From Minisyncoccota bacterium (GTDB lineage Bacteria; Patescibacteriota; Minisyncoccia; Phycocordibacterales; UBA918), in NCBI GenBank assembly GCA_021734905.1, contig JAIPIB010000001.1:71476-135475 (forward strand): a stretch of 64,000 bases of DNA, given 5' to 3'. The notes below the pieces were generated by a model, which made no database searches, was not told the origin of the DNA, and saw nothing but the letters and a program-made list of their open reading frames with translations. Below, one piece after another: positions 24,027-57,112 of the stretch. The position numbers and the translations under genes are program-made. How positions within the stretch are numbered: position 1 is the stretch's first letter; each line of letters opens with the position of its first letter.

Positions 24027-25145
24027 GTGCATACTATGGCTATGAAGATTCTTATTGCAACAGGCTTATATCCACCAGAAATAGGCGGACCTGCCACCTA
24101 TGCTGTCTTTCTTGAAAAGTTTCTAGGACTACATGGTGTCTCATGTAGTGTTCTTCCATATAGCGAGGTTCGTAAGTACCCAAAGGCTATTCGACATCTT
24201 GCGTATATCATTAAACTTTTGTTACGCTCGCAAGGAGTTACTCTGTTCTATGCGCTTGATACAGTAAGCGTCGGTCTTCCGGTACGTGTTGTGAGTTTTA
24301 TTACACGCAAACCTTACTTCCTTCGTGTTCCGGGTGATTATGCCTGGGAGCAAGGACAACAAAGATTTGGCATTACTGAAACATTGGACGAATTTTTACT
24401 TTCTAAAAAGAAAACATGGAAAGTCACGATGCTTTCGCGGATTCAGTATTATGTAGCATTGCATGCGACAAAAGTTGTTGTCCCGAGTGAATATATGAAA
24501 TCAGTCGTTTCACGATGGGGAATTGAACTGAAAAAAATCACAAGGGTTTATAGTGCACTCACCCTTGATCTTTCTACTGAAACAAAGACAGAGCTTCGCT
24601 CGCGTTTTGAATATGATGGATTTGTCGTTTCTACTGCTGGTCGCCTTGTACCATGGAAGGGGATGGAGGTGCTTATTGATGTTGTAGCGCAACTCTATAA
24701 ACAAGGTAAAAAAATACGTCTTGAAATAATGGGAGACGGTGAATTACGATCAGAACTCGAGAGACATGTTGAGAAAATTGGTGCCCAGGAGTATGTGCAT
24801 TTTTATGGCGTTGTCGATAAACGAGAGCTTAAAGATAGAATCAAAGCATCCGATGTCTTTGTGCTCAACACATCTTATGAGGGCCTTTCCCATCAGTTAC
24901 TTGAAGTTATGGATTGCGGTACACCAGTCATAACAACACCAGTAGGCGGAAATGCTGAGCTCATTGAAGATGGTAAAGAAGGACTTCTTGTATCATTTAA
25001 TGATAAGGAAGGAATAATTGAGGCTCTTACACGAGTAGCTACTGATGAAAGACTTCAGGAACACATTGTTGGGAATGCTCACGAAAAAGTTTCACTTTTT
25101 CGTGAGGAAGTTATTATTCCAGAGGTCGTCAAACTATTTACGTAA
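24027..25145 (+). CDS. Glycosyltransferase family 4
   Basis: MKILIATGLYPPEIGGPATYA N-terminus. C-terminal GLSHQLLEVMDCGTPVITTPVGG. Confidence 0.85.
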   Translation: MHTMAMKILIATGLYPPEIGGPATYAVFLEKFLGLHGVSCSVLPYSEVRKYPKAIRHLAYIIKLLLRSQGVTLFYALDTVSVGLPVRVVSFITRKPYFLRVPGDYAWEQGQQRFGITETLDEFLLSKKKTWKVTMLSRIQYYVALHATKVVVPSEYMKSVVSRWGIELKKITRVYSALTLDLSTETKTELRSRFEYDGFVVSTAGRLVPWKGMEVLIDVVAQLYKQGKKIRLEIMGDGELRSELERHVEKIGAQEYVHFYGVVDKRELKDRIKASDVFVLNTSYEGLSHQLLEVMDCGTPVITTPVGGNAELIEDGKEGLLVSFNDKEGIIEALTRVATDERLQEHIVGNAHEKVSLFREEVIIPEVVKLFT

Positions 25146-25148
25146 CAT

Positions 25149-26279
25149 ATGGAAATTCTTACCGTTGGGATCGCCCGGAAAATCTTAGATGTAAAAAGTC
25201 GTGAATATCGACGTATGAGGACGTATGCCAAACACTTTGAGGCATTTCACGCAATTGTTTTAACACGGAAAGAACATGGATATGGTGACGTACTTCACGA
25301 TGAGACATTGAATATTTATCCGACGAATTCATCTTCACGGATGATGATGCTTTGGGATGCGTACAGAATCGGAAAAGAAATTGCACGACAAAAGAGAAAA
25401 TCTACACTCATCATTTCGGCACAAGATCCATTGGAAATCGGATGGCTTTGTTTTTTACTCTCAAGTATCAAAAATACATGTCTTCATGTTCAGATACATG
25501 GTGATTATTTTAGCTCAAATGCATGGGCAGGAAAGTCACTATTGAGATACGCTCGTCGCTTTTTTGCGCTCGTACTCTTGAAACGCGCTGTAGCAATTCG
25601 CGTTGTGTCAGAGAGAATTAAAAAATCTTTATGTAGTAGAGGTATCAGTTCTGGTCGTATCGCGGTATTGCCCATTCGACCGGAGTTAGAATCTTTTTGT
25701 CGGGTGGTATATACAGTTAAAAAAAATCCACCTTATACATTTTTGTATATCGGTAGGCTCGTATCAGAAAAAAATATCACGCGTATTGTAAAAGCTTTTT
25801 CTAATATACATACCAAATATCCAGATACACGGCTTACTATTGTGGGCGACGGGGAGGAAAAAAAGAAAATTGAATCTTTAATTCAAAAGCTCAAGATTGG
25901 TAGTTCTGTTGATATAAGAGCTTGGACAGAAAACGTGCCAAATGAGATGGCGGATGCCGACGTTCTCCTTTTGGCTTCAAAACATGAAGCATATGCGCTA
26001 ACACTTGTTGAGGCAATGGCGACCGGACTTCCACTGGTTACGACTGATGTTGGGTGTGTTGGTGAATTGGTGAAAGACGATGAACACGGCATTGTCGTTA
26101 CAGAAGAAGGTGTCGATGCGTATTCAAAAGCGATGGAGCGCATGGTAAGTGATTATGAATTTAGAAAAGCATGTAGTGAAAATGGAAAGAAAACTATGTG
26201 TTGTAAAGCGACGAACAGCAATGACGAATATATAAGAGAGTGGGTAAGTTCGGTATCAATGGCACTTCAGCACGTATAA
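25149..26279 (+). CDS. Glycosyltransferase family 4
   Basis: KHEAYALTLVEAMATGLPLVTTDVGCVGELV motif. Confidence 0.8.
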   Translation: MEILTVGIARKILDVKSREYRRMRTYAKHFEAFHAIVLTRKEHGYGDVLHDETLNIYPTNSSSRMMMLWDAYRIGKEIARQKRKSTLIISAQDPLEIGWLCFLLSSIKNTCLHVQIHGDYFSSNAWAGKSLLRYARRFFALVLLKRAVAIRVVSERIKKSLCSRGISSGRIAVLPIRPELESFCRVVYTVKKNPPYTFLYIGRLVSEKNITRIVKAFSNIHTKYPDTRLTIVGDGEEKKKIESLIQKLKIGSSVDIRAWTENVPNEMADADVLLLASKHEAYALTLVEAMATGLPLVTTDVGCVGELVKDDEHGIVVTEEGVDAYSKAMERMVSDYEFRKACSENGKKTMCCKATNSNDEYIREWVSSVSMALQHV

Positions 26280-26287
26280 TATAAAGT

Positions 26288-27685
26288 ATGGCAAAGAAGA
26301 TCTATGATTGGCTTGATCCATCAAAACAAGCCGCTGATTATTTAAACACAGTACTTGAACGGGATGATGTATTAAAAGGTGATCAGACACTTGATGATCT
26401 TCTTGAAAATGATGATGACGACAATCAGTCTTATTCCTCAGAAATTGATGTGGAAGTAGATACAAAGACCACACCAAGAAATGCACGTAATGAGCCAAAA
26501 ATCCTTTCAGATATACCAGAACGAGAACAGGCTCGTCTTCTTTTCCTGACTAAGGACACTACAATAATGCAGGAGGGAAGTCTTTCAAATCGACGGATTG
26601 CTGATCTTCGTAGTTTTTTCCTTGAAGTCCATGTCGTCGTACTTACCTTGCGAGAAGAGGAGGATGTTGCTCCCGTACGATTATTTGATAACGTGTGGTT
26701 ATATGCAACGAATTCACGTTCACCGTGGCGCATGGCATATGATGCTTATGTTGTTGTTAAAACCCAACTTATATTCGGAGGTGGATTTCGTGCCGATGTG
26801 ATTATTGCAGAGGATACGTTTGAGACAGGTCTCGTTGGATGTTTCTTTTCAAAAAAACACAAAAGACCTCTTCAGGTGCATATCAGTGAAGACTTTTTTG
26901 TTACGTCTTTTATTGAAGCACAGGAGTATCCACTTTTGTATGAATGGGCAACTAGATATGTTCTTAAGCACGCAACAAGTGTGCGCACAAAGACAGAATT
27001 TCAGCGACAAGCAGCTATTTTGGAATACCCAGATCTCACATCAGTAACTGAGATCCTCCCTAATTATTATAATTTGGAAGGATGGAAAAATTTTGTGCCA
27101 ACCGTAAATTTACGTGAGCGGTATCCTCAATTTAAATTTACATTGCTTAATATTTCATCAATGCGAAAGAGTTCTCGCGCACTTGAAGCGCTTATAGGTG
27201 CGGCAAAGATTTTGCACAGATATCCCGTCGTCGGGCTCATTATGGTAGGGAATGGTCCTATGCGCGCAGTCCTTGAGAGGTATGCAATTTCTCTTGGTGT
27301 TCAGAAACAGGTGGAGTTTGAACCACTGCCGACTGAAGTACTCTCATTCATGAGGTCTACTAATGTACTACTTCATCTTTCTGAGGACGGGGAAGACGAT
27401 GATTTTATTTTAGAGGCTGCTGTCGCAAGACTCCCTATGGTGGCAAATAAAGACGGGATCGCAGGGCAACTTTTTGTTGATGAAGAATCTGCATGTCTGT
27501 GCGCAGCTACTGATATCGAATGCATTGCCAATAGCATCAATAGATATTTAAATGAAAATCAAGATCGTGCACTGTTTACAAACAGAGCATATGACATAGT
27601 TTTCGAACGTGTTGAGCAAGACTATGGAGAATATATCAAGCAGTATGCAGAGAGCATACAACGTTGTGTCGTTAAAGAAGGTTAG
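26288..27685 (+). CDS. GT4-like glycosyltransferase with an acidic roughly 90-aa N-terminal extension
   Basis: GT-B halves are recognisable (DVIIAEDTFETGLVG... and EDGEDDDFILEAAVARLPMVAN). The N-terminus is Asp/Glu-rich. Confidence 0.65.
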   Translation: MAKKIYDWLDPSKQAADYLNTVLERDDVLKGDQTLDDLLENDDDDNQSYSSEIDVEVDTKTTPRNARNEPKILSDIPEREQARLLFLTKDTTIMQEGSLSNRRIADLRSFFLEVHVVVLTLREEEDVAPVRLFDNVWLYATNSRSPWRMAYDAYVVVKTQLIFGGGFRADVIIAEDTFETGLVGCFFSKKHKRPLQVHISEDFFVTSFIEAQEYPLLYEWATRYVLKHATSVRTKTEFQRQAAILEYPDLTSVTEILPNYYNLEGWKNFVPTVNLRERYPQFKFTLLNISSMRKSSRALEALIGAAKILHRYPVVGLIMVGNGPMRAVLERYAISLGVQKQVEFEPLPTEVLSFMRSTNVLLHLSEDGEDDDFILEAAVARLPMVANKDGIAGQLFVDEESACLCAATDIECIANSINRYLNENQDRALFTNRAYDIVFERVEQDYGEYIKQYAESIQRCVVKEG

Positions 27686-27699: not shown

Positions 27700-28764
27700 G
27701 TGGAGTACAATGCCACGTATTGCTTCCCTATGAACCTACTTATTTGTACACAGACTATAGACAAAAATGACTCAATTCTGGGATTTTTTCATGGGTGGGT
27801 TCTTGAATTTGCAAAGCATTTTGATGAAGTTCATGTCATATGTCTTGGAAAAGGGGAATACAATTTTCCGCCGCATGTTCATGTGTATTCTCTTGGGAAG
27901 GAGTGTGGTGAAAATAGATTGAAATACTTTTTTCGTTTCTACTCCTACTTTTCCAAAATATTTCTTGGAGGGCATGTAGATTATGTTTTCTTTCATATGG
28001 GAGCGATTTACAATATTCTCGCAGCACCATTCTTCGTAATTCGAAAAATATTTAAGACTAAATTTTATTGGTGGAAAGCACACGGACACATTAACTGGGG
28101 AGGTAAGCTCGCTCTTCTTTTTGTTGACATTGTTTATACAGCTTCTCAGGAAAGTTTCCCTATTGATTCTAGAAAAAAGAAAGTGATTGGTCATGCGATC
28201 AACATAAATATGTTTAATGTGGTGGAACGCACTATATCTGATCCTATCGTTTTGTTTGTGAGTAGGATTACACCAATCAAACAAGCTGAATCTTTTATTG
28301 ATACGGTGCAAATACTTAAAACTCGAGGATATAAGTTTCAAGCACGCATTGTCGGGGTAGTGGGTGATCCTAAGTATATGCAATTGATGGAGGAAAAAAT
28401 TCTCAGAGCAAAACTTTCAGATACAATTCAATTTATTGGCCCAATCAAGCATGATCTACTTCTTGAAGAGTACCGCCATGCTTGCGTACTGGTCCATCCG
28501 TCCGAAACGGGTAGTATTGATAAGGTTGTCCTTGAGGCAATGGCTTCTGGAGTCCCTGTGGTGGCCCTGCAGAAAGCATATGCCGATTTACTTAAAGAGT
28601 TTGACCTTACTGTTAATTCACAAGATCCAGTGCTGTACGCAAACTTGGTAGAGAAAGTATTTTTAAATAGAGAATATTTTCAACAAATGTCGGAAAAATT
28701 GAGAAAAAAGATTATAAGCACTAATTCCCTTGAAACCCTATCTGGAAGGATTTTTGGTTTTTAA
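27700..28764 (+). CDS. GT4-like glycosyltransferase
   Basis: C-terminal SETGSIDKVVLEAMASGVPVVAL. Probable start at the internal Met at about 27727. Confidence 0.65.
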   Translation: MEYNATYCFPMNLLICTQTIDKNDSILGFFHGWVLEFAKHFDEVHVICLGKGEYNFPPHVHVYSLGKECGENRLKYFFRFYSYFSKIFLGGHVDYVFFHMGAIYNILAAPFFVIRKIFKTKFYWWKAHGHINWGGKLALLFVDIVYTASQESFPIDSRKKKVIGHAININMFNVVERTISDPIVLFVSRITPIKQAESFIDTVQILKTRGYKFQARIVGVVGDPKYMQLMEEKILRAKLSDTIQFIGPIKHDLLLEEYRHACVLVHPSETGSIDKVVLEAMASGVPVVALQKAYADLLKEFDLTVNSQDPVLYANLVEKVFLNREYFQQMSEKLRKKIISTNSLETLSGRIFGF

Positions 28765-28833: not shown

Positions 28834-29682
28834 ATGGTCAATTTTATAGGTATTGGAGCGCAACGAACGGGGACGTCGTGGGTATATGCATGTCTTTATG
28901 AACACCCAGATATTTGTATCCCTGTTAAAGAAATTCACTTTTTTAGTCGACCACGGTATGAAAATGGAAAAGAATGGTATGAAGACCATTTTAGGAAGTG
29001 TAAAAAAGAAAGTAGGTGCGGAGAATTTTCAACTTCGTATTTGTACTCAGATGTTGCTGCTGAGCGTATTTCTAAAGATTACCCAGAAGCAAGAATAATT
29101 GTCATTGTACGAAATCCTATTACGCGTGCGCTTTCACAGTATGGAAATGCAATAAAGGGAGGCGAGATACCCGAGACTATGTCTTTTGAGGAATATTACA
29201 AATCAGAGGCAAGTGTTCTTGAACAAGGACGTTATGTAGAACAACTTGAACGGTACCTTGAGAGATTTGACCGTTCACAAATACTTGTCCTCGTGTATGA
29301 AGATAATAAGAAAGATCCACGTGCATTTATTCACAGTATATATGAATTTCTTGGTGTGCGTTCTGACTTCGTGCCAAGTATGCTTCATGACACAATCAAT
29401 GCTACTCGTATACCAAAAAATGTTGTAATAGAAAAAATGATGCATCGTTTTTCAGAATATCTGAGACGGTACGGATTTGATCGACTCGTGCATCGTATTC
29501 GGCAATTAGGAATTCCTGAATTAATACGAGCCATGAATACAAAACCAAAAAAAGATGAGAGGCCAGTATTTAATCAAGAGTATCTCATGAATTATTTTAA
29601 GAACGACGTAACAAAACTCTCTTCGTTACTTGGGCGTGACCTTAATTCTGAGTGGGGAATAAGTGACACACATACACAATAA
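28834..29682 (+). CDS. Sulfotransferase (PAPS-dependent, Sulfotransfer_1/3-like)
   Basis: 5'-PSB loop IGAQRTGTSW and 3'-PB motif IVIVRNPITRALSQY. Confidence 0.75.
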   Translation: MVNFIGIGAQRTGTSWVYACLYEHPDICIPVKEIHFFSRPRYENGKEWYEDHFRKCKKESRCGEFSTSYLYSDVAAERISKDYPEARIIVIVRNPITRALSQYGNAIKGGEIPETMSFEEYYKSEASVLEQGRYVEQLERYLERFDRSQILVLVYEDNKKDPRAFIHSIYEFLGVRSDFVPSMLHDTINATRIPKNVVIEKMMHRFSEYLRRYGFDRLVHRIRQLGIPELIRAMNTKPKKDERPVFNQEYLMNYFKNDVTKLSSLLGRDLNSEWGISDTHTQ

Positions 29683-30491
29683 TGAAAAAATATCTCAGAA
29701 ACAACTTTATATCATTTGTTAGTCATGTGGGACTTTCGTATATATATCGTACCCTCAAAAAAAGGGAAGGTTCTCTTGTGCGGGTGCTTGTCTTTCATGA
29801 TGTGCAGGATGCAAGCTGGTTCGAGAATATGATGACGTCTCTGAATAAGCGATACAATCTGCTTACGCCAGATTCTTTTCTTAAAAAGCAGTATGACTCA
29901 AATCGGATAAATGTACTTATTACATTTGATGATGGGTACTTATCATGGGTAGATGTTTGCCTTCCTATCCTTAAAGAAAAGGGGATCAAAGCACTCTTCT
30001 TTATTAATTCAGGACTCATTGACGTATTTGAACATCAAGATATTCAGGAACAATATATTCGGGGAAACCTCCTTCTTTCGCCACGGAAAACACTTTCATG
30101 GGATGGTGTCAAAAAACTTCATGAAGCTGGACACATGATAGGTGGCCATACGACAACCCATCCTCGACTTTCTGAGTTACATGAAGATAGACAGAGAGAG
30201 ACTGTCGTCCAGGATAAAAAACGGATTGAGGAAATACTTAATACGTCGATACGCACTTTCGCATATCCGTTTGGTCAGAGAAATGACTATACTCCAGAAA
30301 CAGTAGGCATTGTAAAGGAGTCCGGATATACACACTCGTTTACAACTGAAGGAGTATTCGTTAATGCGTATAATCAATTTGAATTTTCAAGACTTTGCGT
30401 TGAGGACGGCCTTTCAATAGGACAATTGAAGCAATGGATTGAAGGTGGGTACGATCTCTATCACAAAATTAAAACACTATGTGTGCGATAA
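29682..30491 (+). CDS. Polysaccharide deacetylase (CE4 / NodB-homology domain)
   Basis: VLITFDDGY motif 1 and GHTTTHPRL motif 2. Confidence 0.75.
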   Translation: MKKYLRNNFISFVSHVGLSYIYRTLKKREGSLVRVLVFHDVQDASWFENMMTSLNKRYNLLTPDSFLKKQYDSNRINVLITFDDGYLSWVDVCLPILKEKGIKALFFINSGLIDVFEHQDIQEQYIRGNLLLSPRKTLSWDGVKKLHEAGHMIGGHTTTHPRLSELHEDRQRETVVQDKKRIEEILNTSIRTFAYPFGQRNDYTPETVGIVKESGYTHSFTTEGVFVNAYNQFEFSRLCVEDGLSIGQLKQWIEGGYDLYHKIKTLCVR

Positions 30492-32335
30492 ATGGCGTTA
30501 CTAAAAATGATGAGGCTCGTGTAGTCCTCATGAATAAAAAGACAAACCATCGAGGTCCTGATGGTTCTTCAGTGTTTGTAGATAGTAAGATAACACTTGG
30601 ACATAACCGTCTCGCTATCATTGATGTGAGTGATGCGTCAGCACAGCCAATGAAAAGTAATGACGGACGCTATGTCATTGTCTATAACGGAGAACTTTAT
30701 AATTTTAAAGAATTGCGTGAAGAGCTTGTGTCACGATATGAATTCAAAACGCAGGGTGATACAGAAGTCCTTCTTGCTGCGTACATAGTATGGGGAGAAG
30801 AAATGTTCACGAAACTTCGAGGTATTTTCGCTCTTGCTATTTGGGATACCAAAACTGAAGAACTTCTTCTTGCTCGAGATCATATGGGAGTGAAACCGCT
30901 CTACTATCATTTTGAAAATGGAATATTGAGTTTTTCCTCAGAAATTAATGGACTCATAGACACACAAACGAAAGAGCTTGATCAAGATGCTCTCGCACTC
31001 TATATGGAGTTTGGATACGTTCCGAGTAGTGCGTCACTCACTAAAAATATTAAGAAACTATCGCCAGGTCATTGTATTCTCTACAAAAATGAAAGGTTCG
31101 ATGAACACGCTTTCTATGACCCAATTTGTAATATTGGTATTCCGGCGCTTTCCGCGAATCCAAATATGGACCCTCAACAAAGCCTAGTATGTATTATTGA
31201 TACTGCGGTTCAAAGACAACTTGTGTCTGATCGCCCTGTCGGAATGTTTCTATCAGGAGGCATTGATTCAAGTGTTGTACTTCATCATGCATCCAAGTAC
31301 ACACCACATATGCGTACATTCTCTGTCGATTTTGAGATGGTCACGGGAGCAGAGTCGGAAGGAGGTAAATTTAACACCGATGCAGCACTTGCGGCAAAGA
31401 CAGCTCAAATATACGGAGCGCAACACAAGACATTTACGCTCACCATTGAGGATGTTCGTAACAATTTAGTACTAGCAATTGAATCGCTTGATGAGCCTGT
31501 TGCAAATCCAACAGCAATCTCACAGTACCTACTTTCAAAATGGGTACGTGATGAGGGTGTTGTCGTTGCACTCGGTGGGGATGGAGGAGATGAGCTCTTT
31601 GGAGGTTACACACGCCATCGTATGTCAATGGCTGCGTACTATTTTCAAAAAATACCCGCATTATTTCGAGCACCTATTTCTCATCTCAATTCTCGTGTTG
31701 GAAAATTGAACACCGAACTTGGTTTCCCAATGCATATGATGCTTATGGCAAATAAAGTTGTTCAAAATAAAGATATTTTTTTACAAGATTTCTCACCTTA
31801 TATAAAAGCAGAAGCATTTTTTACGTCTGCGTACGCGCGTGTACCACAAGACACCTACCATCCTGTTGATACATTCATGCGTATCGATCGTGAGACATGG
31901 CTTCCTGACGAATCACTGGCACGTTCTGATCGTTCAAGTATGGCACATGGCCTGGAACTTCGTGTACCGCTCCTTGATTTAGATGTCGTAACGTATGCCG
32001 ATACAATCTCTGTCTATAAAAAAACAGACCCATTCACAGGAAAGAAAATTCTTCGTAATGCATACAGTACACATTTACCCGAATACCTTTATAATCAACC
32101 GAAACGTGGTTGGATATCTCCAGGCGCAAAATGGTTTCGCGACCCTGTTATCATGTCGCTCGCGAAAGAAATACTTTCGCCCACCTATTACGACGGACTC
32201 AATCTTTTTAATTGGCCAGTCGTGGAGACGATGCTTTTAGACCATATAGAAAAAAGGGGGTATTATTTGTATCCACTTTGGAACATACTCGTTCTTCAGA
32301 TATGGGCGAGAAAGAACCGCATTAGTATGCAGTAG
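30479..32335 (+). CDS. asnB: Asparagine synthetase B-type glutamine amidotransferase (WbpS-like amidotransferase is plausible in this glycan context)
   Basis: N-terminal Cys2 (MCAING), GHNRLAIIDVS, PP-loop LSGGIDSS. Confidence 0.85.
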   Translation: MCAINGVTKNDEARVVLMNKKTNHRGPDGSSVFVDSKITLGHNRLAIIDVSDASAQPMKSNDGRYVIVYNGELYNFKELREELVSRYEFKTQGDTEVLLAAYIVWGEEMFTKLRGIFALAIWDTKTEELLLARDHMGVKPLYYHFENGILSFSSEINGLIDTQTKELDQDALALYMEFGYVPSSASLTKNIKKLSPGHCILYKNERFDEHAFYDPICNIGIPALSANPNMDPQQSLVCIIDTAVQRQLVSDRPVGMFLSGGIDSSVVLHHASKYTPHMRTFSVDFEMVTGAESEGGKFNTDAALAAKTAQIYGAQHKTFTLTIEDVRNNLVLAIESLDEPVANPTAISQYLLSKWVRDEGVVVALGGDGGDELFGGYTRHRMSMAAYYFQKIPALFRAPISHLNSRVGKLNTELGFPMHMMLMANKVVQNKDIFLQDFSPYIKAEAFFTSAYARVPQDTYHPVDTFMRIDRETWLPDESLARSDRSSMAHGLELRVPLLDLDVVTYADTISVYKKTDPFTGKKILRNAYSTHLPEYLYNQPKRGWISPGAKWFRDPVIMSLAKEILSPTYYDGLNLFNWPVVETMLLDHIEKRGYYLYPLWNILVLQIWARKNRISMQ

Positions 32336-39989: not shown

Positions 39990-39990
39990 T

Positions 39991-44706: not shown

Positions 44707-44739
44707 GTCCATATGTTTGAAATAAACTAAGAGATTAGT

Positions 44740-45495: not shown

Positions 45496-45512
45496 TGTTT
45501 TTTATATAAAAT

Positions 45513-49085: not shown

Positions 49086-49796
49086 ATGAAACGAATAACA
49101 ATTTCTGGAGGTTTTGATCCGATACATCCTGGACACATTGCGATGATTGAGGATGCAAAGAAGTTTGGTGAGGTACACGTAATTGTAAACAGTGATGATT
49201 GGCTTATACGAAAGAAGGGTTTCTTTTTTCAACCGTGGACAGATCGTAAAAAAATCCTTGAAGCGTATACACCACATGTTTATGATGTCGATGATTCTGA
49301 TGGTACTGTCTGTGAAGCACTTCGTCGTATTAGGCCAGACTATTTTGGAAATGGCGGTGATAGGGGAAAGACAAATACTCCAGAATTAAATGTGTGTGAG
49401 GAGCTCGGTATAGAGCCGGTTTTTGAACTTGGTGGAGGGAAATATTCTTCAAGCTCAGCATTGAATGCAAAACAGCGAGTGAGTACACGATGGGGTTGGT
49501 TTGACGTTATCCTTGATATGCACGCACTGAAAGTAAAAATGCTTCATATTGAAGCAGGGAAATCATTATCGCTCCAAAAGCATGGTGACAGGAGTGAGTT
49601 CTTTTTTATGCCTACCGGAGAAGTGAGGGTAAATCTTCCTGGCGTATGGCATGTGCTTGAAGCACCAAGCGACCAAGACCTGGATGTTCTCGAGGTCCAA
49701 ATGGGAATTTCGGCAGAGGAAGATATTGATAAGATACATGAGACTCATGAGTCGTTTGACGTTGAAAAAGTAAAGAAAATACTTCTGAATAGATAG
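49086..49796 (+). CDS. Fusion of a HIGH-motif (cytidylyltransferase-like, RfaE-domain-II/TagD-type) nucleotidyltransferase with a PMI-type cupin
   Basis: N-terminal ISGGFDPIHPGHIAMIEDAKKFG (HxGH). C-terminal RWGWFDVILDMHALKVKMLHIEAGKSLSLQKHGDRSEFFFMPTGEVRV parallels the ManC PMI cupin (RPWGxY...KVKRI.V.PG..LS.Q.H.HR.E.W). Confidence 0.65.
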   Translation: MKRITISGGFDPIHPGHIAMIEDAKKFGEVHVIVNSDDWLIRKKGFFFQPWTDRKKILEAYTPHVYDVDDSDGTVCEALRRIRPDYFGNGGDRGKTNTPELNVCEELGIEPVFELGGGKYSSSSALNAKQRVSTRWGWFDVILDMHALKVKMLHIEAGKSLSLQKHGDRSEFFFMPTGEVRVNLPGVWHVLEAPSDQDLDVLEVQMGISAEEDIDKIHETHESFDVEKVKKILLNR

Positions 49797-49863: not shown

Positions 49864-50571
49864 ATGAGTAACACTACTAACGAAACATTTTCTTATACAG
49901 GAGGGGCAGCACTCGAAAACATGAATGAAGCCGTTCGATACAATCAAGCGCTTCTCAATTTAATTTATCGAACTGACATAACCAAAACGTCTAGGATACT
50001 TGATTTTGGTGCAGGAATGGGCACGTTTTCAAAATTGCTTCGTGAAGAAGGCTATAAGGTTGACTGTCTTGAAGTTGACCCCACAGAGAGTGCTTATTTG
50101 CGCGGTGCAGGTTTTACTGTTTTTGAGAATCTACTCGAGGTTCCTGATGGTGTGTACGATAGCATTTACAGTCTTAACGTGCTTGAACATATAGAAGATC
50201 ATGCTGGGGCTCTCTCTGAATTGCAGAAAAAATTGAAAGTTGGTGGCAGACTATTCTTGTATGTTCCTGCATTTCAATCTCTTTATTCCGAATTTGATGC
50301 CATGTTAGGTCATTTTCGTCGATATAAATTATCTGATCTACAAACACTACTCGAAGCTAGCCACTTCAGTATTCTTGATATTCGTTATTATGATACGCTC
50401 GGCTTTCTTGCTGCATACATGTTTAAGTTACTTCGTTCAAAACCAGAGCAGGTTACGCGAAGAAAGATATGGATATTCGATCGACTCATCTTCCCATGTA
50501 ACCGCATTTTTGATCCGTTATTTCGGAGGTGGTTTGGAAAAAATATCTTTGCATTGTGTATTAAAAAATAG
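49864..50571 (+). CDS. Class I SAM-dependent methyltransferase
   Basis: ILDFGAGMGTFSKLL motif I and LNVLEHIEDH. Confidence 0.7.
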   Translation: MSNTTNETFSYTGGAALENMNEAVRYNQALLNLIYRTDITKTSRILDFGAGMGTFSKLLREEGYKVDCLEVDPTESAYLRGAGFTVFENLLEVPDGVYDSIYSLNVLEHIEDHAGALSELQKKLKVGGRLFLYVPAFQSLYSEFDAMLGHFRRYKLSDLQTLLEASHFSILDIRYYDTLGFLAAYMFKLLRSKPEQVTRRKIWIFDRLIFPCNRIFDPLFRRWFGKNIFALCIKK

Positions 50572-50631: not shown

Positions 50632-51756
50632 ATGATAGATGCCTTGCGTCCATATGTATTCCTCGGTGTTGCAGTAATTGTTGCGACGTTAAGTTTTCTT
50701 GTGATTGGTCCATTTAATATGAATATTGATGGAGATATCTATGTTGCACAGGTTGAACAATTCGAATCTGGACAAGTAACCAATGTGCCATACAATGTTG
50801 CGCAACGTGCGTTTAAGCCAGCGGTTGGTGTATTAGGAAGTTTGCTTGTACCATTTTTTACACCAACTGAAGCAATCCAATTCCTAAACCTCTTAATACT
50901 TTTCGCATTACCGTTTGTTGCATTCAAATTTTTCTGTGAGTGTGGTTTCACAGAGAAAGAAGCGACATGGGGAGCAGTCTGGCTTATGACCGGGTATCCT
51001 GTCTTGAAATATGGACTTGCGATTAGTACAGATATGGGAAGTTGGCTTTTCGCACTCGCAAGTGCATATTTTGTACTTAAAGGCTTACGCACGGATTCAT
51101 ATCGAACGATTCTTCTCGCGTCACTCCTTGGATTTATTGGAGGAACAATAAAAGAGCCTGGAGTTTTTGGGCTTTTCTTCGGAGCTATATACATCGCTTT
51201 TACATATGCACAACGACCAATACAAAAAACTATTACACTACTTTCGGTTCTAGCACTTCCAGCATTTATCTGTGAAACGATACTTTTTTCAGTACTCATA
51301 TACGCCGGATTTCCAACATTTTTGGATTGGTATAGTGTCGTCACCGTTGAAAAGTTTGCAGCAGAGCATTACCAGCTATTACAATTTGCTGGGGTCCTTG
51401 CTTCCACGTTTAGTATTCTGCTTGTGTATGCATTGATAGGATTTATTTCTGTTCTGTACAGACGTGTACGACTTTATGACACGACGCATGCATTTACAGC
51501 AGCAGTTCTTCTAACGTCGTTACCAATATTACTTTGGAAAATATTTATTTCGCGAGTTCTTTTTATTCAGTTTATATTTTTTATACCGATGGCACTACTC
51601 GGAGTACGTACGCTCAACGAGTATGTTGGGAGCAGGAAGAGCGTATTAAAATTACAGACCGTTTTATACGTATTACCAATCATCTGCTCTGTGGGGCTTT
51701 TCTTGCTCGCTGGTCGAGGGTCACTCTTTGACCTATTCACTAGAATATTTGGGTAG
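50632..51756 (+). CDS. Polytopic membrane protein (374 aa, about 10 TM). GtrC/GT-C-like candidate.
   Basis: Converges on and overlaps the 3' end of gtrA by 24 nt. No soluble domain. Confidence 0.5.
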   Translation: MIDALRPYVFLGVAVIVATLSFLVIGPFNMNIDGDIYVAQVEQFESGQVTNVPYNVAQRAFKPAVGVLGSLLVPFFTPTEAIQFLNLLILFALPFVAFKFFCECGFTEKEATWGAVWLMTGYPVLKYGLAISTDMGSWLFALASAYFVLKGLRTDSYRTILLASLLGFIGGTIKEPGVFGLFFGAIYIAFTYAQRPIQKTITLLSVLALPAFICETILFSVLIYAGFPTFLDWYSVVTVEKFAAEHYQLLQFAGVLASTFSILLVYALIGFISVLYRRVRLYDTTHAFTAAVLLTSLPILLWKIFISRVLFIQFIFFIPMALLGVRTLNEYVGSRKSVLKLQTVLYVLPIICSVGLFLLAGRGSLFDLFTRIFG

Positions 51757-52164
51757 GTTATTTTCCTTGTTTTTGAATAGCTTACTGTAGGCAAGATACG
51801 ACCATACTGCGATGATCATTGCTACCACGATTTGCGCAACAACCGGGGCAAGGCCAACGCGCTCGACAAAGAAAATCATGAGTACATAGTTTACAAAAAA
51901 GTTCATTGAGGCAACAAGAAAGAAAAGTAGGGACTGTTTGTGGACTGTTTGCGTATCAGTGTTTCGGAAAGTAAAAAACTTTTGCATTATAAAATTAAAC
52001 GTAACAGCACCAAGAAAACCAAATGTTGTTGCGTACCGGTACCAAACATCAAATACATCAGTCAGTATGAATACGATACCAATATGGATCGATGCACTCG
52101 TTCCTCCTGAAAATAGAAAACGAAATATTCTTATCCCAAATATTTTTTTTGTCAGTTGATACAT
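51733..52164 (-). CDS. GtrA-family polyprenyl-phosphate-sugar flippase-like protein
   Basis: 143 aa with 4 TM helices. FLFSGGTSASIHIGIVFIL...FNFIMQKFFTFRN is characteristic of GtrA. Confidence 0.7.
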   Translation of the reverse strand: MYQLTKKIFGIRIFRFLFSGGTSASIHIGIVFILTDVFDVWYRYATTFGFLGAVTFNFIMQKFFTFRNTDTQTVHKQSLLFFLVASMNFFVNYVLMIFFVERVGLAPVVAQIVVAMIIAVWSYLAYSKLFKNKENNLPKYSSE

Positions 52165-52173: not shown

Positions 52174-52884
52174 TTAATCGGTGAAACGGTATTTAATGAG
52201 AGTCCAAACTCCCTCGATGCCATCCCGCCAGTTTATTTTTTTCCCGTCGGCAACTGACCGTGGATAGTATGAGATTGGAACTTCATGAATTGGAATCTTT
52301 CTTTTGGCAATCTTCGCAGTTATTTCAGGGCAGAATTCGAAACCTGTACAGGCGAGAGGGATACTTTTGAGAAGGTTTGCTCTAAATACTTTATAACAGG
52401 TTGGTTCGTCAGTGATTCTGGTGTTGTAGAGAAGATTTGTCTGTATAGTGAGCACCATACCCCCAACATAAAACCAAAAACCTGAATATTGAGCATTCTC
52501 TTTCTTGAGTCTTCTTGAGCCATACACGACGTCCGCAGTGTTGTTTAGTATTGGTGCAATGAGAAGTTTAAAGTCCTCTGGGTCATATTCTAAATCAGCA
52601 TCCTGGATAATAATAATTGTACCAGTGCAGTGGGCAATTGCGGTACGAATTGCAGAACCCTTGCCCTGGTTTTTTTGCGATAATAATGTAATTGGTAGTG
52701 TTGGATTGTGAGCGATGAATGTCTCGACTTGCTCGATGGTTTGGTCAATTGAACCATCATTAACAATGATGATCTCCTTAGATACACCCATTGCCTCAAG
52801 ATCCACAGCGTGGATTTTTTCAAGGATCTTTTGGATCGTTGACTCTTCATTGTAAGCAGGGATTATAATTGATAGTCGATGCAT
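52174..52884 (-). CDS. GT2 polyprenyl-phosphate hexosyltransferase (GtrB/DPM1-like)
   Basis: LSIIIPAYNEE, IIVNDGSID and QDADLEYDP (DXD) motifs. Confidence 0.8.
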   Translation of the reverse strand: MHRLSIIIPAYNEESTIQKILEKIHAVDLEAMGVSKEIIIVNDGSIDQTIEQVETFIAHNPTLPITLLSQKNQGKGSAIRTAIAHCTGTIIIIQDADLEYDPEDFKLLIAPILNNTADVVYGSRRLKKENAQYSGFWFYVGGMVLTIQTNLLYNTRITDEPTCYKVFRANLLKSIPLACTGFEFCPEITAKIAKRKIPIHEVPISYYPRSVADGKKINWRDGIEGVWTLIKYRFTD

Positions 52885-53008: not shown

Positions 53009-54685
53009 TTGTCACTTAGAATAAATAAATTATATATGAATACAGAGCATGCTGATATCCTACATCTTCCGCGACTTAATCTGCGTGGAAGGCAACTCCA
53101 CGATCTTGAGGTGATGCTCGTGGGTGGATTTCTTCCTGTAACGGGATTTATGGATGAGGAGGATTATACTTCTGTAGTAGAGACAATGCGACTCAAAAAC
53201 GGTTCACTTTTTCCTATTCCGATTGTGCTCGATATTCCTGCAAAGAGTCCGTATGTCGTTGGCGACAAAATTTTGCTCTGTGATTCTTTTGGTAACCCCC
53301 TCTCAGTTATGGATGTCACCTCACGGTTTACACCAGATAAAAAAAGGGAAGCGCAGGCTGTGTATGGAACTGAAGATACTATGCATCCAGGGGTACAGTA
53401 TCTTTTCAGTGAAATGCATGACACCTACATTGGAGGAACACTATCGAAGCTTGCGCTTCCAATTCGAAACGACTTCAAACAATTTAGAAAAACACCGGAA
53501 GAACTTAAGGTTATATTTAAGGAGAAAGGATGGGACAGGGTTGTTGGTTTCCAGACGCGCAACCCAATGCATCGTGCACATTTTGAGCTTGTTAAACGCG
53601 CATATGAAAAAGTCGGTGCCCCCGTGCTCGTACACCCTGTTGTTGGGATGACAAAGCCTGGCGATATTGATTACGTGACGAGAGTTCGTACGTATAACAT
53701 TGTCTGTAATAGTTATGGAAAGGATTTTACGTATCTTTCCCTCTTGCCACTTGCTATGCGTATGGCAGGCCCACGAGAGGCCGTATGGCATGCGATTATT
53801 CGAAAGAATTACGGGTGTACGCATTTTATCTCTGGGCGCGATCATGCAGGTCCTGGCAAAGGGAGTGATGGAAAAGATTTTTATGGACCATATGACGCGC
53901 GCGATCTTGCACTTAAATATGCTGATGAGATAGGCATTACTATCATTGCATCTGATGAGCTTGCATATTCTAAGACGCGACAATCGTATGTCGCCGCTGA
54001 CGAAGTGACTCATGAAGATGAAATTGAGAATATTTCAGGTACTGAATTTAGAAGGAAGCTGCGTGAAGGTGAAGATATTCCCGAATGGTTTTCGTTTAAG
54101 GAAAGCATTGATATATTGCGTGAAAGTGTCCGAAAGGATATTCGACCCGGTGTCACTTTCTTTTTTACAGGACTCTCATGTTCTGGTAAGTCGACACTCG
54201 CCCAACTACTTCTTGCTCGTCTTCAAGAAATTCAAGATCGTGAAGTGACATTCCTTGACGGTGACGTCATTCGTGAAAATCTTTCAAAAGGCCTCGGTTT
54301 CTCAAAGGAGGATCGGGATGAAAATGTAAAGAGAGTTGGGTTTGTTGCTAGTGAAGTGGTGAAGCACGGAGGAATAGCCATTTGTTCACTTATTGCACCA
54401 TACCGTGATACGCGTCGATATGTGCGAAATATGATAGAGCACCATGGTGAGTTTATTGAAATATTCGTGAATGCGTCTGTTGATGAGTGTGCGAGGCGCG
54501 ATACAAAGGGTCTCTATGAAAAGGCCCGCAAGGGACTCATTAAGGGATTTACTGGTGTTGATGACCCATATGAAGAGCCTGAAAATCCAGAGCTCATTGC
54601 CTTGACTGAAGAAAATTCTCCGGAAGTAATTGTCGAAGAAATACTGAAATATCTACATGAACGTGAGATATTCAAGCGGAAGTAG
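53009..54685 (+). CDS. Bifunctional sulfate adenylyltransferase (ATP sulfurylase) / adenylylsulfate kinase (PAPS synthase)
   Basis: N-terminal GFQTRNPMHRAHFEL (QTRN/HRAH ATP-sulfurylase motifs). C-terminal VTFFFTGLSCSGKSTLA P-loop and APS-kinase fold. Confidence 0.85.
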   Translation: MSLRINKLYMNTEHADILHLPRLNLRGRQLHDLEVMLVGGFLPVTGFMDEEDYTSVVETMRLKNGSLFPIPIVLDIPAKSPYVVGDKILLCDSFGNPLSVMDVTSRFTPDKKREAQAVYGTEDTMHPGVQYLFSEMHDTYIGGTLSKLALPIRNDFKQFRKTPEELKVIFKEKGWDRVVGFQTRNPMHRAHFELVKRAYEKVGAPVLVHPVVGMTKPGDIDYVTRVRTYNIVCNSYGKDFTYLSLLPLAMRMAGPREAVWHAIIRKNYGCTHFISGRDHAGPGKGSDGKDFYGPYDARDLALKYADEIGITIIASDELAYSKTRQSYVAADEVTHEDEIENISGTEFRRKLREGEDIPEWFSFKESIDILRESVRKDIRPGVTFFFTGLSCSGKSTLAQLLLARLQEIQDREVTFLDGDVIRENLSKGLGFSKEDRDENVKRVGFVASEVVKHGGIAICSLIAPYRDTRRYVRNMIEHHGEFIEIFVNASVDECARRDTKGLYEKARKGLIKGFTGVDDPYEEPENPELIALTEENSPEVIVEEILKYLHEREIFKRK

Positions 54686-54892
54686 GTTTGATTTGGTGTA
54701 TAAAAAAAGCAAATCACCAAGTGCTTTATTGACGAAAGAGTTGACTTATTGCATTCAGAAGATTCTTTGTACAGGGTAGGGGTTGCCATGGTATAGTTTT
54801 TGTCATATGAGTTTTCTGCAGACTACTACATAAGGGGTGATGTTGTGGTAGATACAGAAACAAATGTTATTAATGATTAATTTCAAAATAGG

Positions 54893-57112
54893 ATGAAAGA
54901 TATTGCAAAAGGATTAGTGTACATGGGGATTTTTGCCATCCCTTTCATTCCGCTTATCATCTCTAATTCAATGTTCTTCCCATTTATTACTGGAAAGAAC
55001 TTCACATTCCGTATCCTTGTCGAAATCGTTTTTATTGCATGGATAATTCTCGCTGCGTATGAGCCAGCGTATCGACCGAAACGTTCGGCGATAGCGTTGA
55101 GTTTCCTTTTGTTTCTTGTTGTTATGTTTGTCGCTAATATTAATGGGCAATATCCATTAAAAAGTTTTTGGAGTAACTTTGAACGAATGGAAGGATACGT
55201 AACACTCGTACATACTTTCGCCTATATGCTTGTTCTCGGAAGTGTGTTTACGACCCAAAAAATTTGGGATAGGTATTTTATGACCATCATTGGTTCAGCA
55301 ATGATTCTTTCTCTGTACGCATTTGCACAGCTTTCTGGAAATATTGTCATCAATCAAGGTGGGGGACGACTTGATGGAACACTTGGGAATTCTGCCTATA
55401 TGGCAATCTACACGCTCTTCCTTATTTTTATAACATTTTTTATGCTGCTCCGAACTCAGAGCAAAGGCATGCGATATGGGTATAGTGCACTCATACTTCT
55501 CTTCATGTATTTATTACTGCAGACTGCCACTCGAGGAACAGTACTAGGTCTCGTAGGAGGTATGTTTATTGCTGTCTCTTATATCGCATTATTAATAAAA
55601 AGTCATCCACATGTACGTAAGTACGCAGTTGGTGGATTGGTGGCAATAGTAGCGAGTGTGACACTTTTCATTACATTTAAGGAATCTTCTTTCATTCAAG
55701 GAAATCCCTATCTCGCACGTATTGCAACTATTTCTTTAAAAGAAGGATCAAACCGTTTTGAAATTTGGAGCATGGCATTTGAGGGGGTAAAAGAACGTCC
55801 ACTTCTTGGATGGGGGCAAGGAAACTACAATTATGTCTTTAACAAGTACTATGAGCCTGAACTTCATGGGGGAGAAGCATGGTTCGACCGTGTTCATAAT
55901 ATTGTTATGGATTGGTTGATTGCTGGTGGATTCATTGGTGCCGTTGCCTATTTCTCAATTCTTGGTTCTGCAGTGTACTATCTTTTCTTCCGCCCACTCT
56001 TCAAGAAGGATGATGAAGCGTTTACTGTCGTGGAACGTGGAGTTCTCTTGGGAATTCTTGCAGGGTACACAGTACACAATCTCTTTGTGTTCGATAATAT
56101 TGTGAGTTATGTGTTTTATGGAACGATACTCGCATATATTCATTCACGGACAAGTACTGGTATTCCTGCACTTGAGCGGTGGAAGATCGATGTTCGTGTT
56201 GTTGAACAGGTAGTAGTTCCTGTTATGACAATCCTCCTTGTCATAACAGTCTACTTTGTAAATGTTCCAGCTATACAGGCATCGAAAGATATTATTAACG
56301 CATTCCGAGCAAAAGATCCGAATGAGATGCTTAAAAATTTTGATATTGCTCTTGCACGAAATTCGTTTGGAAATCAAGAGATACGCGAACAACTTACTCA
56401 ACGTGCGCAATCAGTCTTTCAAGATCCGAACGCACCAGAAGCATTAAAACAGAAGACGTTTAAACGTGTTGAAGAGGAGTTGCAAAAGCAGATAGAAGAG
56501 AAGCCCAATGATGCAAGAGTCGAGGTGTTTATCAGCTCATTCTATCGAATGACTAATAATCTTGATCAGGCGGTTACTCACCTTGAGAAAGCTCGATCAC
56601 TTTCCCCACGAAAGCAGCTCATTATCTTTGAGCAAGGTACGGTAGCATTGCAGAAACAGGAATTCGAGAAAGCTACAGAATTCTTTAAGGAGGCTTACGA
56701 ACTTGGACCACAGTTTATAGAGTCGCGTGTGTATTACGCAACCGCATTGGTTTATGGTGGGCAACTTGGGCTTGTTGGCGACCTTATCCAAACAGAAGAA
56801 CAGAAGAATGCCTTTGCAGTAAATGAAAATGCAGTTAGAGCAGTTTACCAGGCAAAAATGTATCCAATGCTTAAAGATATGTTTGCGCGACAAATTGTGC
56901 TAAATCCAAACAATGGACAAGTAAGAACGAATCTTGCGTATGTATTGAGCGAGACGGGAGATACTGCAGGAGCAATCGACGTCCTTACAAAGGCAGGAGA
57001 GGATATTCCAAGTTTCAAGGAACAGGCGGATCAATTTATAGCAACCATTAAAAATGAAGATCCTGCAACACCGACTGTAGAAATTAATGGGCAGAAAGTT
57101 CAGACTGAATAA
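54893..57112 (+). CDS. O-antigen ligase/polymerase-like (Wzy_C) membrane domain fused to C-terminal TPR repeats
   Basis: About 12 TM helices with a periplasmic loop TRGTVLGLVGG...LLGWGQGNY. C-terminal roughly 250 aa show TPR-like repeats. Confidence 0.7.
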   Translation: MKDIAKGLVYMGIFAIPFIPLIISNSMFFPFITGKNFTFRILVEIVFIAWIILAAYEPAYRPKRSAIALSFLLFLVVMFVANINGQYPLKSFWSNFERMEGYVTLVHTFAYMLVLGSVFTTQKIWDRYFMTIIGSAMILSLYAFAQLSGNIVINQGGGRLDGTLGNSAYMAIYTLFLIFITFFMLLRTQSKGMRYGYSALILLFMYLLLQTATRGTVLGLVGGMFIAVSYIALLIKSHPHVRKYAVGGLVAIVASVTLFITFKESSFIQGNPYLARIATISLKEGSNRFEIWSMAFEGVKERPLLGWGQGNYNYVFNKYYEPELHGGEAWFDRVHNIVMDWLIAGGFIGAVAYFSILGSAVYYLFFRPLFKKDDEAFTVVERGVLLGILAGYTVHNLFVFDNIVSYVFYGTILAYIHSRTSTGIPALERWKIDVRVVEQVVVPVMTILLVITVYFVNVPAIQASKDIINAFRAKDPNEMLKNFDIALARNSFGNQEIREQLTQRAQSVFQDPNAPEALKQKTFKRVEEELQKQIEEKPNDARVEVFISSFYRMTNNLDQAVTHLEKARSLSPRKQLIIFEQGTVALQKQEFEKATEFFKEAYELGPQFIESRVYYATALVYGGQLGLVGDLIQTEEQKNAFAVNENAVRAVYQAKMYPMLKDMFARQIVLNPNNGQVRTNLAYVLSETGDTAGAIDVLTKAGEDIPSFKEQADQFIATIKNEDPATPTVEINGQKVQTE

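Follow-up and report, generated by a model that had tools for sequence, protein, structure and literature searches.

A chemically diverse Wzx-type glycan locus in a Patescibacteria genome, at a hotspot beside MurB–SecA and ending in a conserved Wzy_C-TPR protein

A Wzy_C domain combined with C-terminal tetratricopeptide repeats (TPR) is the architecture of the O-oligosaccharyltransferases WsfB, of the Paenibacillus alvei surface layer (S-layer), and PglL (PMC2943079). For a C-methyl-branched deoxyhexose, a scheme leading to GDP-virenose was proposed for Coxiella burnetii, in silico only, in which Gmd is followed by a TylCIII-like C-methyltransferase and a reductase (PMC3539893). Sulfated polysaccharides that depend on 3'-phosphoadenosine 5'-phosphosulfate (PAPS) are described, for instance, from the capsules of marine Vibrio and Cobetia (PMC11641403, PMC11766843), and families that transfer the acidic sugar Kdo (3-deoxy-D-manno-octulosonate) are still emerging, glycosyltransferase (GT) family GT140 being newly founded (PMC12887879). 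Patescibacteria have already been described as rich in genes for surface modification (PMC12911398). A glycan locus of about 33 kb was analysed at positions 24027-57112 of a 64,000-nucleotide stretch of DNA, here called the window, which covers positions 71,476 to 135,475 of contig JAIPIB010000001.1 of a Minisyncoccota bacterium. The locus is native and lineage-typical, not an idiosyncratic island, and on balance it probably directs a Wzx-dependent, lipid-linked and heavily modified oligosaccharide that is moved by a WsfB/PglL-like Wzy_C-TPR protein.

A life in attachment to host cells is assumed for bacteria of the candidate phyla radiation (CPR, Patescibacteria), and to our knowledge their surface chemistry is almost undescribed. 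The CPR-like features remarked on in the initial annotation, made from the sequence alone, were confirmed by database matches. For three locus proteins, exact matches came from a Candidatus Pacebacteria bacterium metagenome-assembled genome (MAG; K9M10_00545, K9M10_00560 and K9M10_00575), and the closest SecA among GTDB species representatives came from a Kaiserbacteria MAG (69% identity), followed by Paceibacterota MAGs at about 60%.

The locus is a mosaic of a conserved core cassette and exchangeable modules. Loci from related genomes were given L numbers (L001-L103) and homologue proteins P numbers. Fourteen independent loci were compared, namely the window, L081, L082, L084, L087, L089, L091, L092, L093, L095, L098, L100, L101 and L103; a metagenome scan with a profile of the 43201 product, named unk500, contributed just eight loci, two of which duplicate others. 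The cassette, at 36344-46793 in the window, has the order GT9–Gmd–DUF6165–Gmd-like–C-methyltransferase (reverse strand)–MetW-like methyltransferase–KdsD or another methyltransferase–unk500–KdsB–KdsA with or without KdsC (a variable position)–Wzx (reverse strand) across the 14 loci. Identity to the window in L087 and L089 is 77-81% for Gmd and just 35-44% for unk500, and the C-methyltransferase is 77-80% identical in L087, L089 and L095. The GT9 gene is present in L081, L082, L084, L087, L089, L098 and L100, the DUF6165 gene stands at the same place between Gmd and the Gmd-like gene in L081, L087 and L089, and the MetW-like methyltransferase gene adjoins or is near unk500 in 11 of the 14 loci. 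KdsD adjoins unk500 in L091, L092 and L103 as well, and Wzx keeps its position and strand in L081, L082, L087, L089, L091, L092, L098 and L103.

Outside the cassette, modules are shared more loosely. The order GT4–sulfotransferase–CE4–AsnB–…–GT4 of the window returns in L084 at 42-58% identity (sulfotransferase 58%), and the AsnB-type amidotransferase, which probably amidates a sugar carboxylate, also occurs in L084, L087, L091, L092, L102 and L103. Orthologues of the GT4 genes at 25149 and 27700 were found in L084 and L098 (33-42% identity). Locus L082 has the Gmd branch swapped for a full heptose set (GmhA-type SIS protein, PfkB kinase, nucleotidyltransferase and HAD protein) and a carbamoyltransferase. 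The initial annotation had left it to comparative genomics whether the island is present or absent in relatives, and whether it is conserved and syntenic in all of them as a pathway with a characterised product. At least 14 independent contigs carry this locus type with its gene order. It recurs within a clade and keeps its position, but it is mosaic, not universal, and has no characterised product.

The position is fixed by MurB and SecA, which form a conserved core flank. The block Wzy_C-TPR–MurB–SecA is kept in the nearest relatives, anchored on SecA (L001, L002, L005, L006 and L008), and Wzy_C-TPR lies beside MurB–SecA in L082, L091 and L102 too. The genes upstream of it vary. Wzm/Wzt (with the Wzt_C carbohydrate-binding domain), Gmd, a short-chain dehydrogenase/reductase (SDR) and a methyltransferase occupy L006 2137-7444 and L008 2304-6339, a gene set predicted to make a methyl-capped 6-deoxyhexose homopolymer by the ABC pathway. 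L002 has ManC, a phosphatase resembling phosphomannomutase (PMM-like) and Gmd at this place, L005 a GT4 and a lectin/LCAT protein, and L102 NeuB, Wzx, GT2, AsnB, GtrA, a GT-C protein of the 47321 type and Sat/CysC. Because the upstream genes differ among relatives while Wzy_C-TPR–MurB–SecA stays, the slot upstream of Wzy_C-TPR is a glycan hotspot with swappable content and a constant terminal enzyme. The NeuB of L102 (3432-4493), a nonulosonic-acid synthase, stands in place of the Kdo genes, and the order GtrA, GT-C, Sat/CysC, Wzy_C-TPR, MurB, SecA is retained there.

The Wzy_C-TPR protein of the window carries PF04932 at residues 200-354, at least nine transmembrane (TM) segments and TPR at residues 518-708. 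In ABC-transporter pathways the polymer is finished in the cytoplasm, so that no Wzy is needed, and a terminal transferase still is. Since Wzy_C-TPR is also kept beside Wzm/Wzt loci, it would be the terminal transferase. It is better read as a putative ligase or O-oligosaccharyltransferase; the functions of WaaL, PglL and Wzy are not told apart by sequence alone.

In the proposed scheme, Gmd would make GDP-4-keto-6-deoxymannose from GDP-mannose, and the C-methyltransferase and a Gmd-derived reductase would carry this on to a GDP-6-deoxy-3-C-methylhexose. CMP-Kdo would come from KdsD and KdsB together with a KdsA and KdsC from another part of the genome, and Sat/CysC would form PAPS to feed the sulfotransferase. 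On the cytoplasmic side of the membrane, eight GTs (six GT4, GT9 and unk500) would build one long oligosaccharide attached to a polyprenyl carrier, to be modified by CE4 N-deacetylation, AsnB-like amidation, O-methylation and sulfation. The glycan would be flipped by the Wzx-family protein. Outside the membrane, the GtrA/GT2/GT-C module with 50632, for which folds and fusions were seen, would add a sugar from a polyprenyl-phosphate sugar. Finally, Wzy_C-TPR would move the finished glycan en bloc to an acceptor, most likely a surface protein, in the manner of WsfB and PglL.

Three Gmd paralogs had been named initially. The gene at 37543 is the only one above the equivalog cut-off; 35305 comes near it, with the catalytic T/E/Y/K intact and the motifs QASTSE and SPYAMSK. 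The third, 38982, fails (248.8 bits) and has QALSSR where the other two have QASTSE, a change of Glu to Arg, with the SDR Tyr and Lys kept; it is 51-55% identical in L087 and L089. We take the Glu of the QASTSE motif to be the catalytic base of the dehydratase in Gmd. Because this Glu is lost while Tyr and Lys are kept, 38982 is probably a GDP-4-keto-6-deoxyhexose 4-ketoreductase derived from Gmd, a dehydratase scaffold recruited as a reductase. The loss also fits the order Gmd, C-methyltransferase, reductase that was drawn up for GDP-virenose. For such a virenose-like route the C-methyltransferase match is clear (PF08484), the reductase being assigned solely from the Glu loss in 38982.

A Kdo module had likewise been listed, and it stands for KdsD and KdsB, both above curated cut-offs, KdsA and KdsC being absent from the window. 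A gene of the Kdo pathway lies within about 6 kb of unk500 in all 14 loci. KdsB follows unk500 directly in eight of them and is fused to it in a ninth: in protein P0063 (700 aa; L092 1485-3587), residues 8-464 are unk500 and residues 470-673 CTP_transf_3, in the context KdsD–fusion–2-oxoglutarate (2OG)-Fe(II) oxygenase–methyltransferase–AsnB–Wzx. KdsA (DAHP_synth_1 family) comes after KdsB in L084, L087 and L089 (51-67% mutual identity), and KdsC is also present in L084. Since KdsA and KdsC adjoin KdsB in these sister loci, the cytidylyltransferase of the family is very likely a true CMP-Kdo synthetase.

The unk500 protein is predicted to have a GT-B fold and belongs to an undescribed family that carries no database annotation. 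A profile search of 1.84 billion representatives gave 521 clusters (50% identity), 240 of them at E ≤ 1e-30 and nearly all of 480-500 aa, and ten sampled clusters showed no Pfam domain except the fusion partner. Among its residues, His262, Glu344 and Glu426 are invariant. Because of the GT-B fold, the adjacency and fusion to KdsB and the Kdo genes in all 14 loci, unk500 is a tentative candidate for the CMP-Kdo-dependent transferase of these loci, a role to which we give slightly less than an even chance. No specific likeness was found to the known Kdo transferases GT30 WaaA, GT99 WbbB, GT107 KpsC/S and GT140 KrkA. The foremost alternative is an NDP-sugar (nucleoside diphosphate sugar) enzyme like NeuC/WecB: such epimerases rank first in Foldseek, which counts against a transferase, at template modelling scores of 0.44-0.56 that do not separate GT from epimerase. 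An epimerase is disfavoured because of the predicted hydrophobic N-terminal helix (residues 73-100), the cytidylyltransferase fusion and the canonical Kdo pathway, which has no such step. The fusion and neighbourhood point to CMP-Kdo, and the protein is directly testable as a new Kdo-transferase family.

The three components of a Gtr-type system are all present: GtrA, a GT2 and a protein of GT-C fold. The 47321 product is, by its predicted fold, a membrane glycosyltransferase of an unnamed GT-C family that would use a polyprenyl-phosphate sugar. For the GT2 at 52174, the best NCBIfam matches are the polyprenyl-phosphate sugar synthases AglJ, ArnC and PpgS, all under cut-off. Beside these, the polytopic 50632 product (374 aa) has 17 homologues, two of which (P0215 and P0216, 610 aa) are fused to GT2 and one (P0217, 510 aa) to GtrA. 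Judging by these fusions, the Gtr-like systems of these bacteria may include this family as a fourth component, a partner of GT2 and GtrA. Gtr-type systems usually decorate the glycan of the adjoining cluster. The 50632 protein was also considered as the missing Wzy, which is disfavoured in view of the homologues fused to GT2 or GtrA. Between the divergent Wzx and GT-C genes lies a 528-bp non-coding gap (46794-47320). The GT-C protein is about 28 residues shorter than its homologues, and a tblastn match starts at 47246; the GTG start at 47321 may be placed too far downstream.

The set for PAPS-dependent sulfation is complete, with ATP sulfurylase, adenosine 5'-phosphosulfate (APS) kinase and sulfotransferase; the window showed no PAP phosphatase. 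The Sat/CysC gene lies directly upstream of Wzy_C-TPR in the window, L089 (79% identity), L102 and L103. In the literature, no paper was found that links Patescibacteria to glycan sulfation.

The locus holds 29 open reading frames (ORFs), almost without gaps (Table 1). Family calls were made by hidden Markov model (HMM) searches of Pfam and NCBIfam with curated cut-offs, and these support the gene families listed initially at their coordinates, among them Wzx, Wzy_C-TPR, GtrA with its GtrB-like GT2, the AsnB-type amidotransferase, GT9 and the sulfation genes. The count of about nine GTs agrees with ten recognisable ones (six GT4, GT9, GT2, one GT-B and one GT-C) beside the Wzy_C protein. All four methyltransferases were recovered, three of class I (33571, 41318 and 49864) and the TylCIII-type C-methyltransferase at 39991 on the reverse strand. 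Where deacetylases were named in the plural, one CE4 (carbohydrate esterase family 4) gene lies in the range, at 29682, and no NCBIfam deacetylase equivalog reaches cut-off for it; the second (22921, reverse strand) lies upstream. Five genes had gone unnamed: DUF6165 (38609), the GT-B-fold protein (43201), the GT-C-fold protein (47321), the nucleotidyltransferase-cupin (49086) and the membrane protein at 50632. Searches with the sequences of unk500, 47321, 50632 and 18165 brought no meaningful match, either in PDB or in Pfam at lenient E-values. The nucleotidyltransferase-cupin reaches 44 bits with TIGR02199, under cut-off, and has orthologues in L081 and L103.

Table 1. Features of the glycan locus and its core flank, by position in the window
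Feature	Position	Strand	Support
GT4	24027-25145	+	Pfam Glycos_transf_1 126.9 bits
GT4	25149-26279	+	Glycos_transf_1 134.6 bits
GT4	26288-27685	+	Glycos_transf_1 48.2 bits
GT4	27700-28764	+	Glycos_transf_1 69.7 bits
PAPS-type sulfotransferase	28834-29682	+	PF00685 75 bits (cut-off 22); PF13469 69.9 bits
CE4 polysaccharide N-deacetylase	29682-30491	+	PF01522 92.1 bits
AsnB-type glutamine amidotransferase	30479-32335	+	PF00733 250.7 bits; TIGR01536 426 bits (cut-off 267)
GT4	32343-33512	+	PF00534 79.1 bits
Class I S-adenosylmethionine (SAM) methyltransferase	33571-34191	+	PF08241 43.6 bits
GT4	34193-35284	+	PF00534 97.7 bits; 61% orthologue in L087
GDP-mannose 4,6-dehydratase paralogue	35305-36339	+	TIGR01472 406.9 bits (cut-off 415)
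GT9, heptosyltransferase family	36344-37498	+	PF01075 63.8 bits (cut-off 22)
Gmd	37543-38580	+	TIGR01472 443.7 bits (cut-off 415)
DUF6165 protein	38609-38998	+	PF19662 32.8 bits
Gmd-derived SDR	38982-39989	+	TIGR01472 248.8 bits, far under cut-off
TylCIII-type NDP-hexose C-methyltransferase	39991-41265	-	PF08484 155.7 bits; PF13489; weak PF08421
MetW-like methyltransferase	41318-42115	+	PF13489, PF07021
KpsF/KdsD arabinose-5-phosphate isomerase, SIS and 2 CBS	42169-43167	+	TIGR00393 247.1 bits (cut-off 203.7)
unk500, GT-B-fold protein	43201-44706	+	predicted fold
KdsB, CMP-Kdo synthetase	44740-45495	+	NF003952 200.9 bits (cut-off 193); PF02348 121 bits
Wzx/MOP-family flippase	45513-46793	-	PF01943 60.1 bits (cut-off 28.2); at least 7 predicted TM segments
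GT-C-fold membrane glycosyltransferase	47321-49009	+	predicted fold
Nucleotidyltransferase (HldE-domain-II-like) fused to cupin	49086-49796	+	PF01467 34 bits; PF01050 36.7 bits
Class I SAM methyltransferase	49864-50571	+	PF13489 60.9 bits
Polytopic membrane protein	50632-51756	+	no family match
GtrA	51733-52164	-	PF04138 77.2 bits
GtrB-like GT2	52174-52884	-	PF00535 104.5 bits
Bifunctional ATP sulfurylase/APS kinase (Sat/CysC)	53009-54685	+	NF004040 779.1 bits (cut-off 669)
Wzy_C (WaaL/PglL family) with C-terminal TPR	54893-57112	+	PF04932 58.4 bits; TPR families
MurB	57162-58259	+	Pfam; core flank, synteny in relatives
SecA	58855-61398	+	Pfam; core flank, synteny in relatives

Several findings weigh against a Wzx-dependent, lipid-linked oligosaccharide. 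No initiating phosphoglycosyltransferase of the WbaP/Bac_transf or WecA/MraY type (PF02397 or PF00953) was matched among window ORFs of at least 100 aa, nor was one found in the Pfam annotation of 14 related loci; its gene may lie elsewhere. ManB and ManC, for GDP-mannose supply, are not in the window. No ORF of the DAHP_synth_1 or Hydrolase_3 families, for KdsA and KdsC, was found there, and tblastn with the KdsA and KdsC of L084, L087 and L089 gave no match in the 64 kb. For GT9 (36344), all heptosyltransferase equivalogs stay under cut-off, tblastn with sister-locus proteins found neither GmhA nor a heptose kinase in the window, and heptose supply comes down to the weak HldE-domain-II-like nucleotidyltransferase at 49086, the full set being in L082. 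The chemistry of the scheme is inferred from enzyme families. Family scans gave no Wzz or polysaccharide co-polymerase (PCP) chain-length regulator in the window, and neither Wzz nor a separate Wzy was found in the sister loci. In the window Wzy_C-TPR is the sole Wzy_C protein, the other polytopic proteins being the GT-C-fold protein and the GT2/GtrA partner 50632. As no second Wzy, Wzz or initiating transferase was found, an oligosaccharide is favoured over a polymer, a weak argument given that Wzy polymerases are hard to detect. A classical capsule or O-antigen-like polymer, with repeats on undecaprenyl-PP, Wzy_C-TPR as the polymerase and all 33 kb serving one product, would make sense of the joint presence of Wzx and a Wzy_C-domain protein and of an array of many GT and nucleotide-sugar genes that mostly run in one direction, and Pfam Wzy_C includes some polymerases. 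It is nevertheless unlikely, as Wzy_C-TPR also accompanies Wzm/Wzt loci, which do not use Wzy, the regulator and the initiating transferase were not found in the window, eight cytoplasmic GTs far exceed the usual need of a repeat unit, and the GtrA/GT2/GT-C genes are a separate module. The initial annotation had spoken of an extraordinary investment in a single surface polysaccharide; what holds is a very large and chemically ambitious glycan locus in a CPR genome, while a single surface polysaccharide is not borne out, with no polymerase found beyond Wzy_C-TPR, no chain-length regulator, no initiating transferase and a self-contained Gtr-like module inside.

The genes could also belong to several independent pathways that happen to be co-located, for example a Wzx glycan, a separate Gtr-type system that glucosylates some other polymer or protein, and PAPS synthesis for general use elsewhere. 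Fusions and adjacency tie GtrA, GT2, GT-C and 50632 to one another and not to the cassette. The Sat/CysC gene goes together with Wzy_C-TPR (L089, L102 and L103) while the sulfotransferase is 24 kb off, and modules are swapped between relatives. Yet the modules share one hotspot and recur jointly, as in L103 with its GT-C-like protein, cassette, Sat/CysC and Wzy_C-TPR, and a Gtr-type system would be expected to act on the neighbouring cluster's glycan; independent pathways seem improbable to us. A glycolipid like the lipopolysaccharide (LPS) core was considered too, in which unk500 puts Kdo on a membrane lipid (compare WaaA with lipid A and KpsS with phosphatidylglycerol), GT9 and the GT4 enzymes extend it, the flippase exports it and a WaaL-like Wzy_C-TPR ligates a second lipid-linked glycan. 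The co-occurrence of Kdo genes, GT9 and a WaaL-family protein is the hallmark of LPS core assembly, and the hydrophobic helix predicted in unk500, the phosphoglycosyltransferase found in none of the 14 loci and the full ADP-heptose gene set beside GT9 in L082 would agree with it; we still regard it as quite unlikely. A further reading, likewise quite unlikely, is that unk500 founds a CMP-Kdo-dependent GT family nearly confined to Patescibacteria and, with GT9, builds an inner-core-like Kdo glycoconjugate in a cell without lipid A or outer membrane. In one form of this reading, Wzy_C-TPR could, like WaaL, ligate variable sulfated glycans onto a Kdo-primed glycolipid; if true, an LPS-like surface architecture would have evolved or been retained in a monoderm CPR lineage. 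Nothing specific was found in the literature on Kdo in Patescibacteria. A horizontal origin of the locus had been raised as well, and its composition is native, without a break. The locus has a GC content of 39.3%, against 41.4% for the flanks, slightly lower GC at 42-50 kb (0.36-0.38) and a gene content that differs among relatives being what would suit a recently acquired foreign island. Such an island is very improbable, however: GC at third codon positions (GC3) is even throughout, tetranucleotide usage of the whole locus matches the flanks (r = 0.969), 5-kb segments of the locus give r of 0.92-0.96 against the remaining window, on a par with the flanks, no integrase, transposase or tRNA was found bordering the locus, and orthologous loci occur at the same position in Patescibacteria only.

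The remainder of the window encodes a single bacterial 16S rRNA gene (597-2057) and Mur ligases. No 23S rRNA gene was found anywhere in the 64 kb, and the sole tRNA, Ile-GAT (3962-4036), lies about 1.9 kb downstream of the 16S gene on the other strand; the standard 16S–tRNA-Ile–23S operon is split apart here. To the left of the glycan region are a protein resembling type IV secretion system (T4SS) pilins (3187-3651, reverse strand), a TrwB/VirD4-like coupling ATPase (10929-12938) and a Lamin-tail (LTD) and PKD surface protein with a C-terminal TM segment (12919-14358), a conceivable target of glycosylation. Directly upstream of the locus, 14404-23907 holds YvcK, SDR, GT4, ATP-grasp, PHP and CE4 genes. 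Amid these sugar genes, the small protein encoded at 21240-21812 combines a PaaX_M/Cas2-like domain (66.9 bits) with a TM helix at its N-terminus. The supposed kinase-like protein in this region (18165-19271, reverse strand) has no family match that supports a kinase; 18165-19846 on that strand consists of two overlapping ORFs of 368 and 192 aa without a family, the shorter with a faint match to the GT4 N-terminal domain (E 0.21), and the pair could be a split or degenerate GT4.

At the other end, a strong intrinsic-terminator-like hairpin with a 16-bp stem and a T run (58649-58683) was seen in the gap between MurB and SecA, and is predicted to be the transcriptional end of the glycan/MurB array. 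Promoter and terminator scans within the locus did no better than on shuffled sequence. SecA is followed by a Phage_holin_4_2 family membrane protein (61949-62356, 113 bits) and a VTT/DedA protein (62417-63088); a DedA-like gene comes after SecA in L001 too.

What is new is a cassette that recurs at a fixed hotspot beside MurB–SecA in a Paceibacteria clade, where exchangeable glycan genes lead up to one conserved Wzy_C-TPR, together with Kdo, C-methyl deoxyhexose and PAPS-dependent sulfation predicted from genes in a CPR lineage, on which no literature was found. The usual context of these three is Gram-negative LPS, capsules or eukaryotic glycans. Three unannotated protein families were given a putative function from fold or fusion (unk500, the GT-C protein 47321 and the GT2/GtrA partner 50632). 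The locus has value as a catalogue entry and as a source of testable enzymes, not as a new principle.

Compared with known systems, single modules are each familiar and depart in some detail. With LPS inner-core and Kdo enzymology (KdsD-KdsA-KdsC-KdsB, WaaA GT30, WaaC/F GT9, and the β-Kdo transferases GT99, GT107 and GT140) the locus shares KdsD and KdsB passing cut-offs, KdsA and KdsC in sister loci, and a co-conserved GT9. Unlike the Coxiella GDP-virenose pathway, it has a Gmd paralogue with Glu changed to Arg as the reductase candidate, keeps Gmd intact in two copies, and always has a DUF6165 gene inserted between Gmd and the Gmd-like gene. Clusters for sulfated bacterial polysaccharides also keep sulfotransferase and PAPS synthesis genes within the glycan cluster, whereas the host here is a CPR bacterium and Sat/CysC is tied in position to Wzy_C-TPR in four loci. 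In the Gtr and CsbB-GtcA-YfhO systems, too, a transferase of GT-C fold goes with a GT2 polyprenyl-phosphate sugar synthase and a protein of the GtrA family; the present module departs from them in that its GT-C protein is of an unnamed family and that it has a fourth membrane protein, 50632.

As a whole, the locus follows the same logic as the Wzx-dependent glycan and O-glycosylation clusters already known. Gram-negative Wzx/Wzy clusters for O-antigen or capsule with WaaL resemble it in having Wzx, numerous GTs, genes for nucleotide sugars and a protein of the WaaL family, and just as O-antigen pathways converge on WaaL, the relatives swap Wzx and ABC export and keep the terminal enzyme; in contrast to these clusters, the locus yielded no Wzz, separate Wzy or WecA/WbaP, and a CPR cell is not expected to have a lipid A-core acceptor. 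The S-layer glycosylation (slg) clusters of monoderm Bacillales (WsfB of P. alvei, WsaB of Geobacillus stearothermophilus) and PglL of Neisseria have in common with it a lipid-linked glycan, export by Wzx or Wzm/Wzt, a Wzy_C terminal transferase with C-terminal TPR as in WsfB and PglL (PMC2943079), the clustering of nucleotide-sugar, GT and methyltransferase genes, and a cell without an outer membrane. The present locus differs from them in having no initiating transferase in the cluster and an acceptor protein that is only proposed, and in its Kdo, sulfation and C-methyl branch genes, its much larger size and a transferase that is a core gene anchored beside MurB–SecA.

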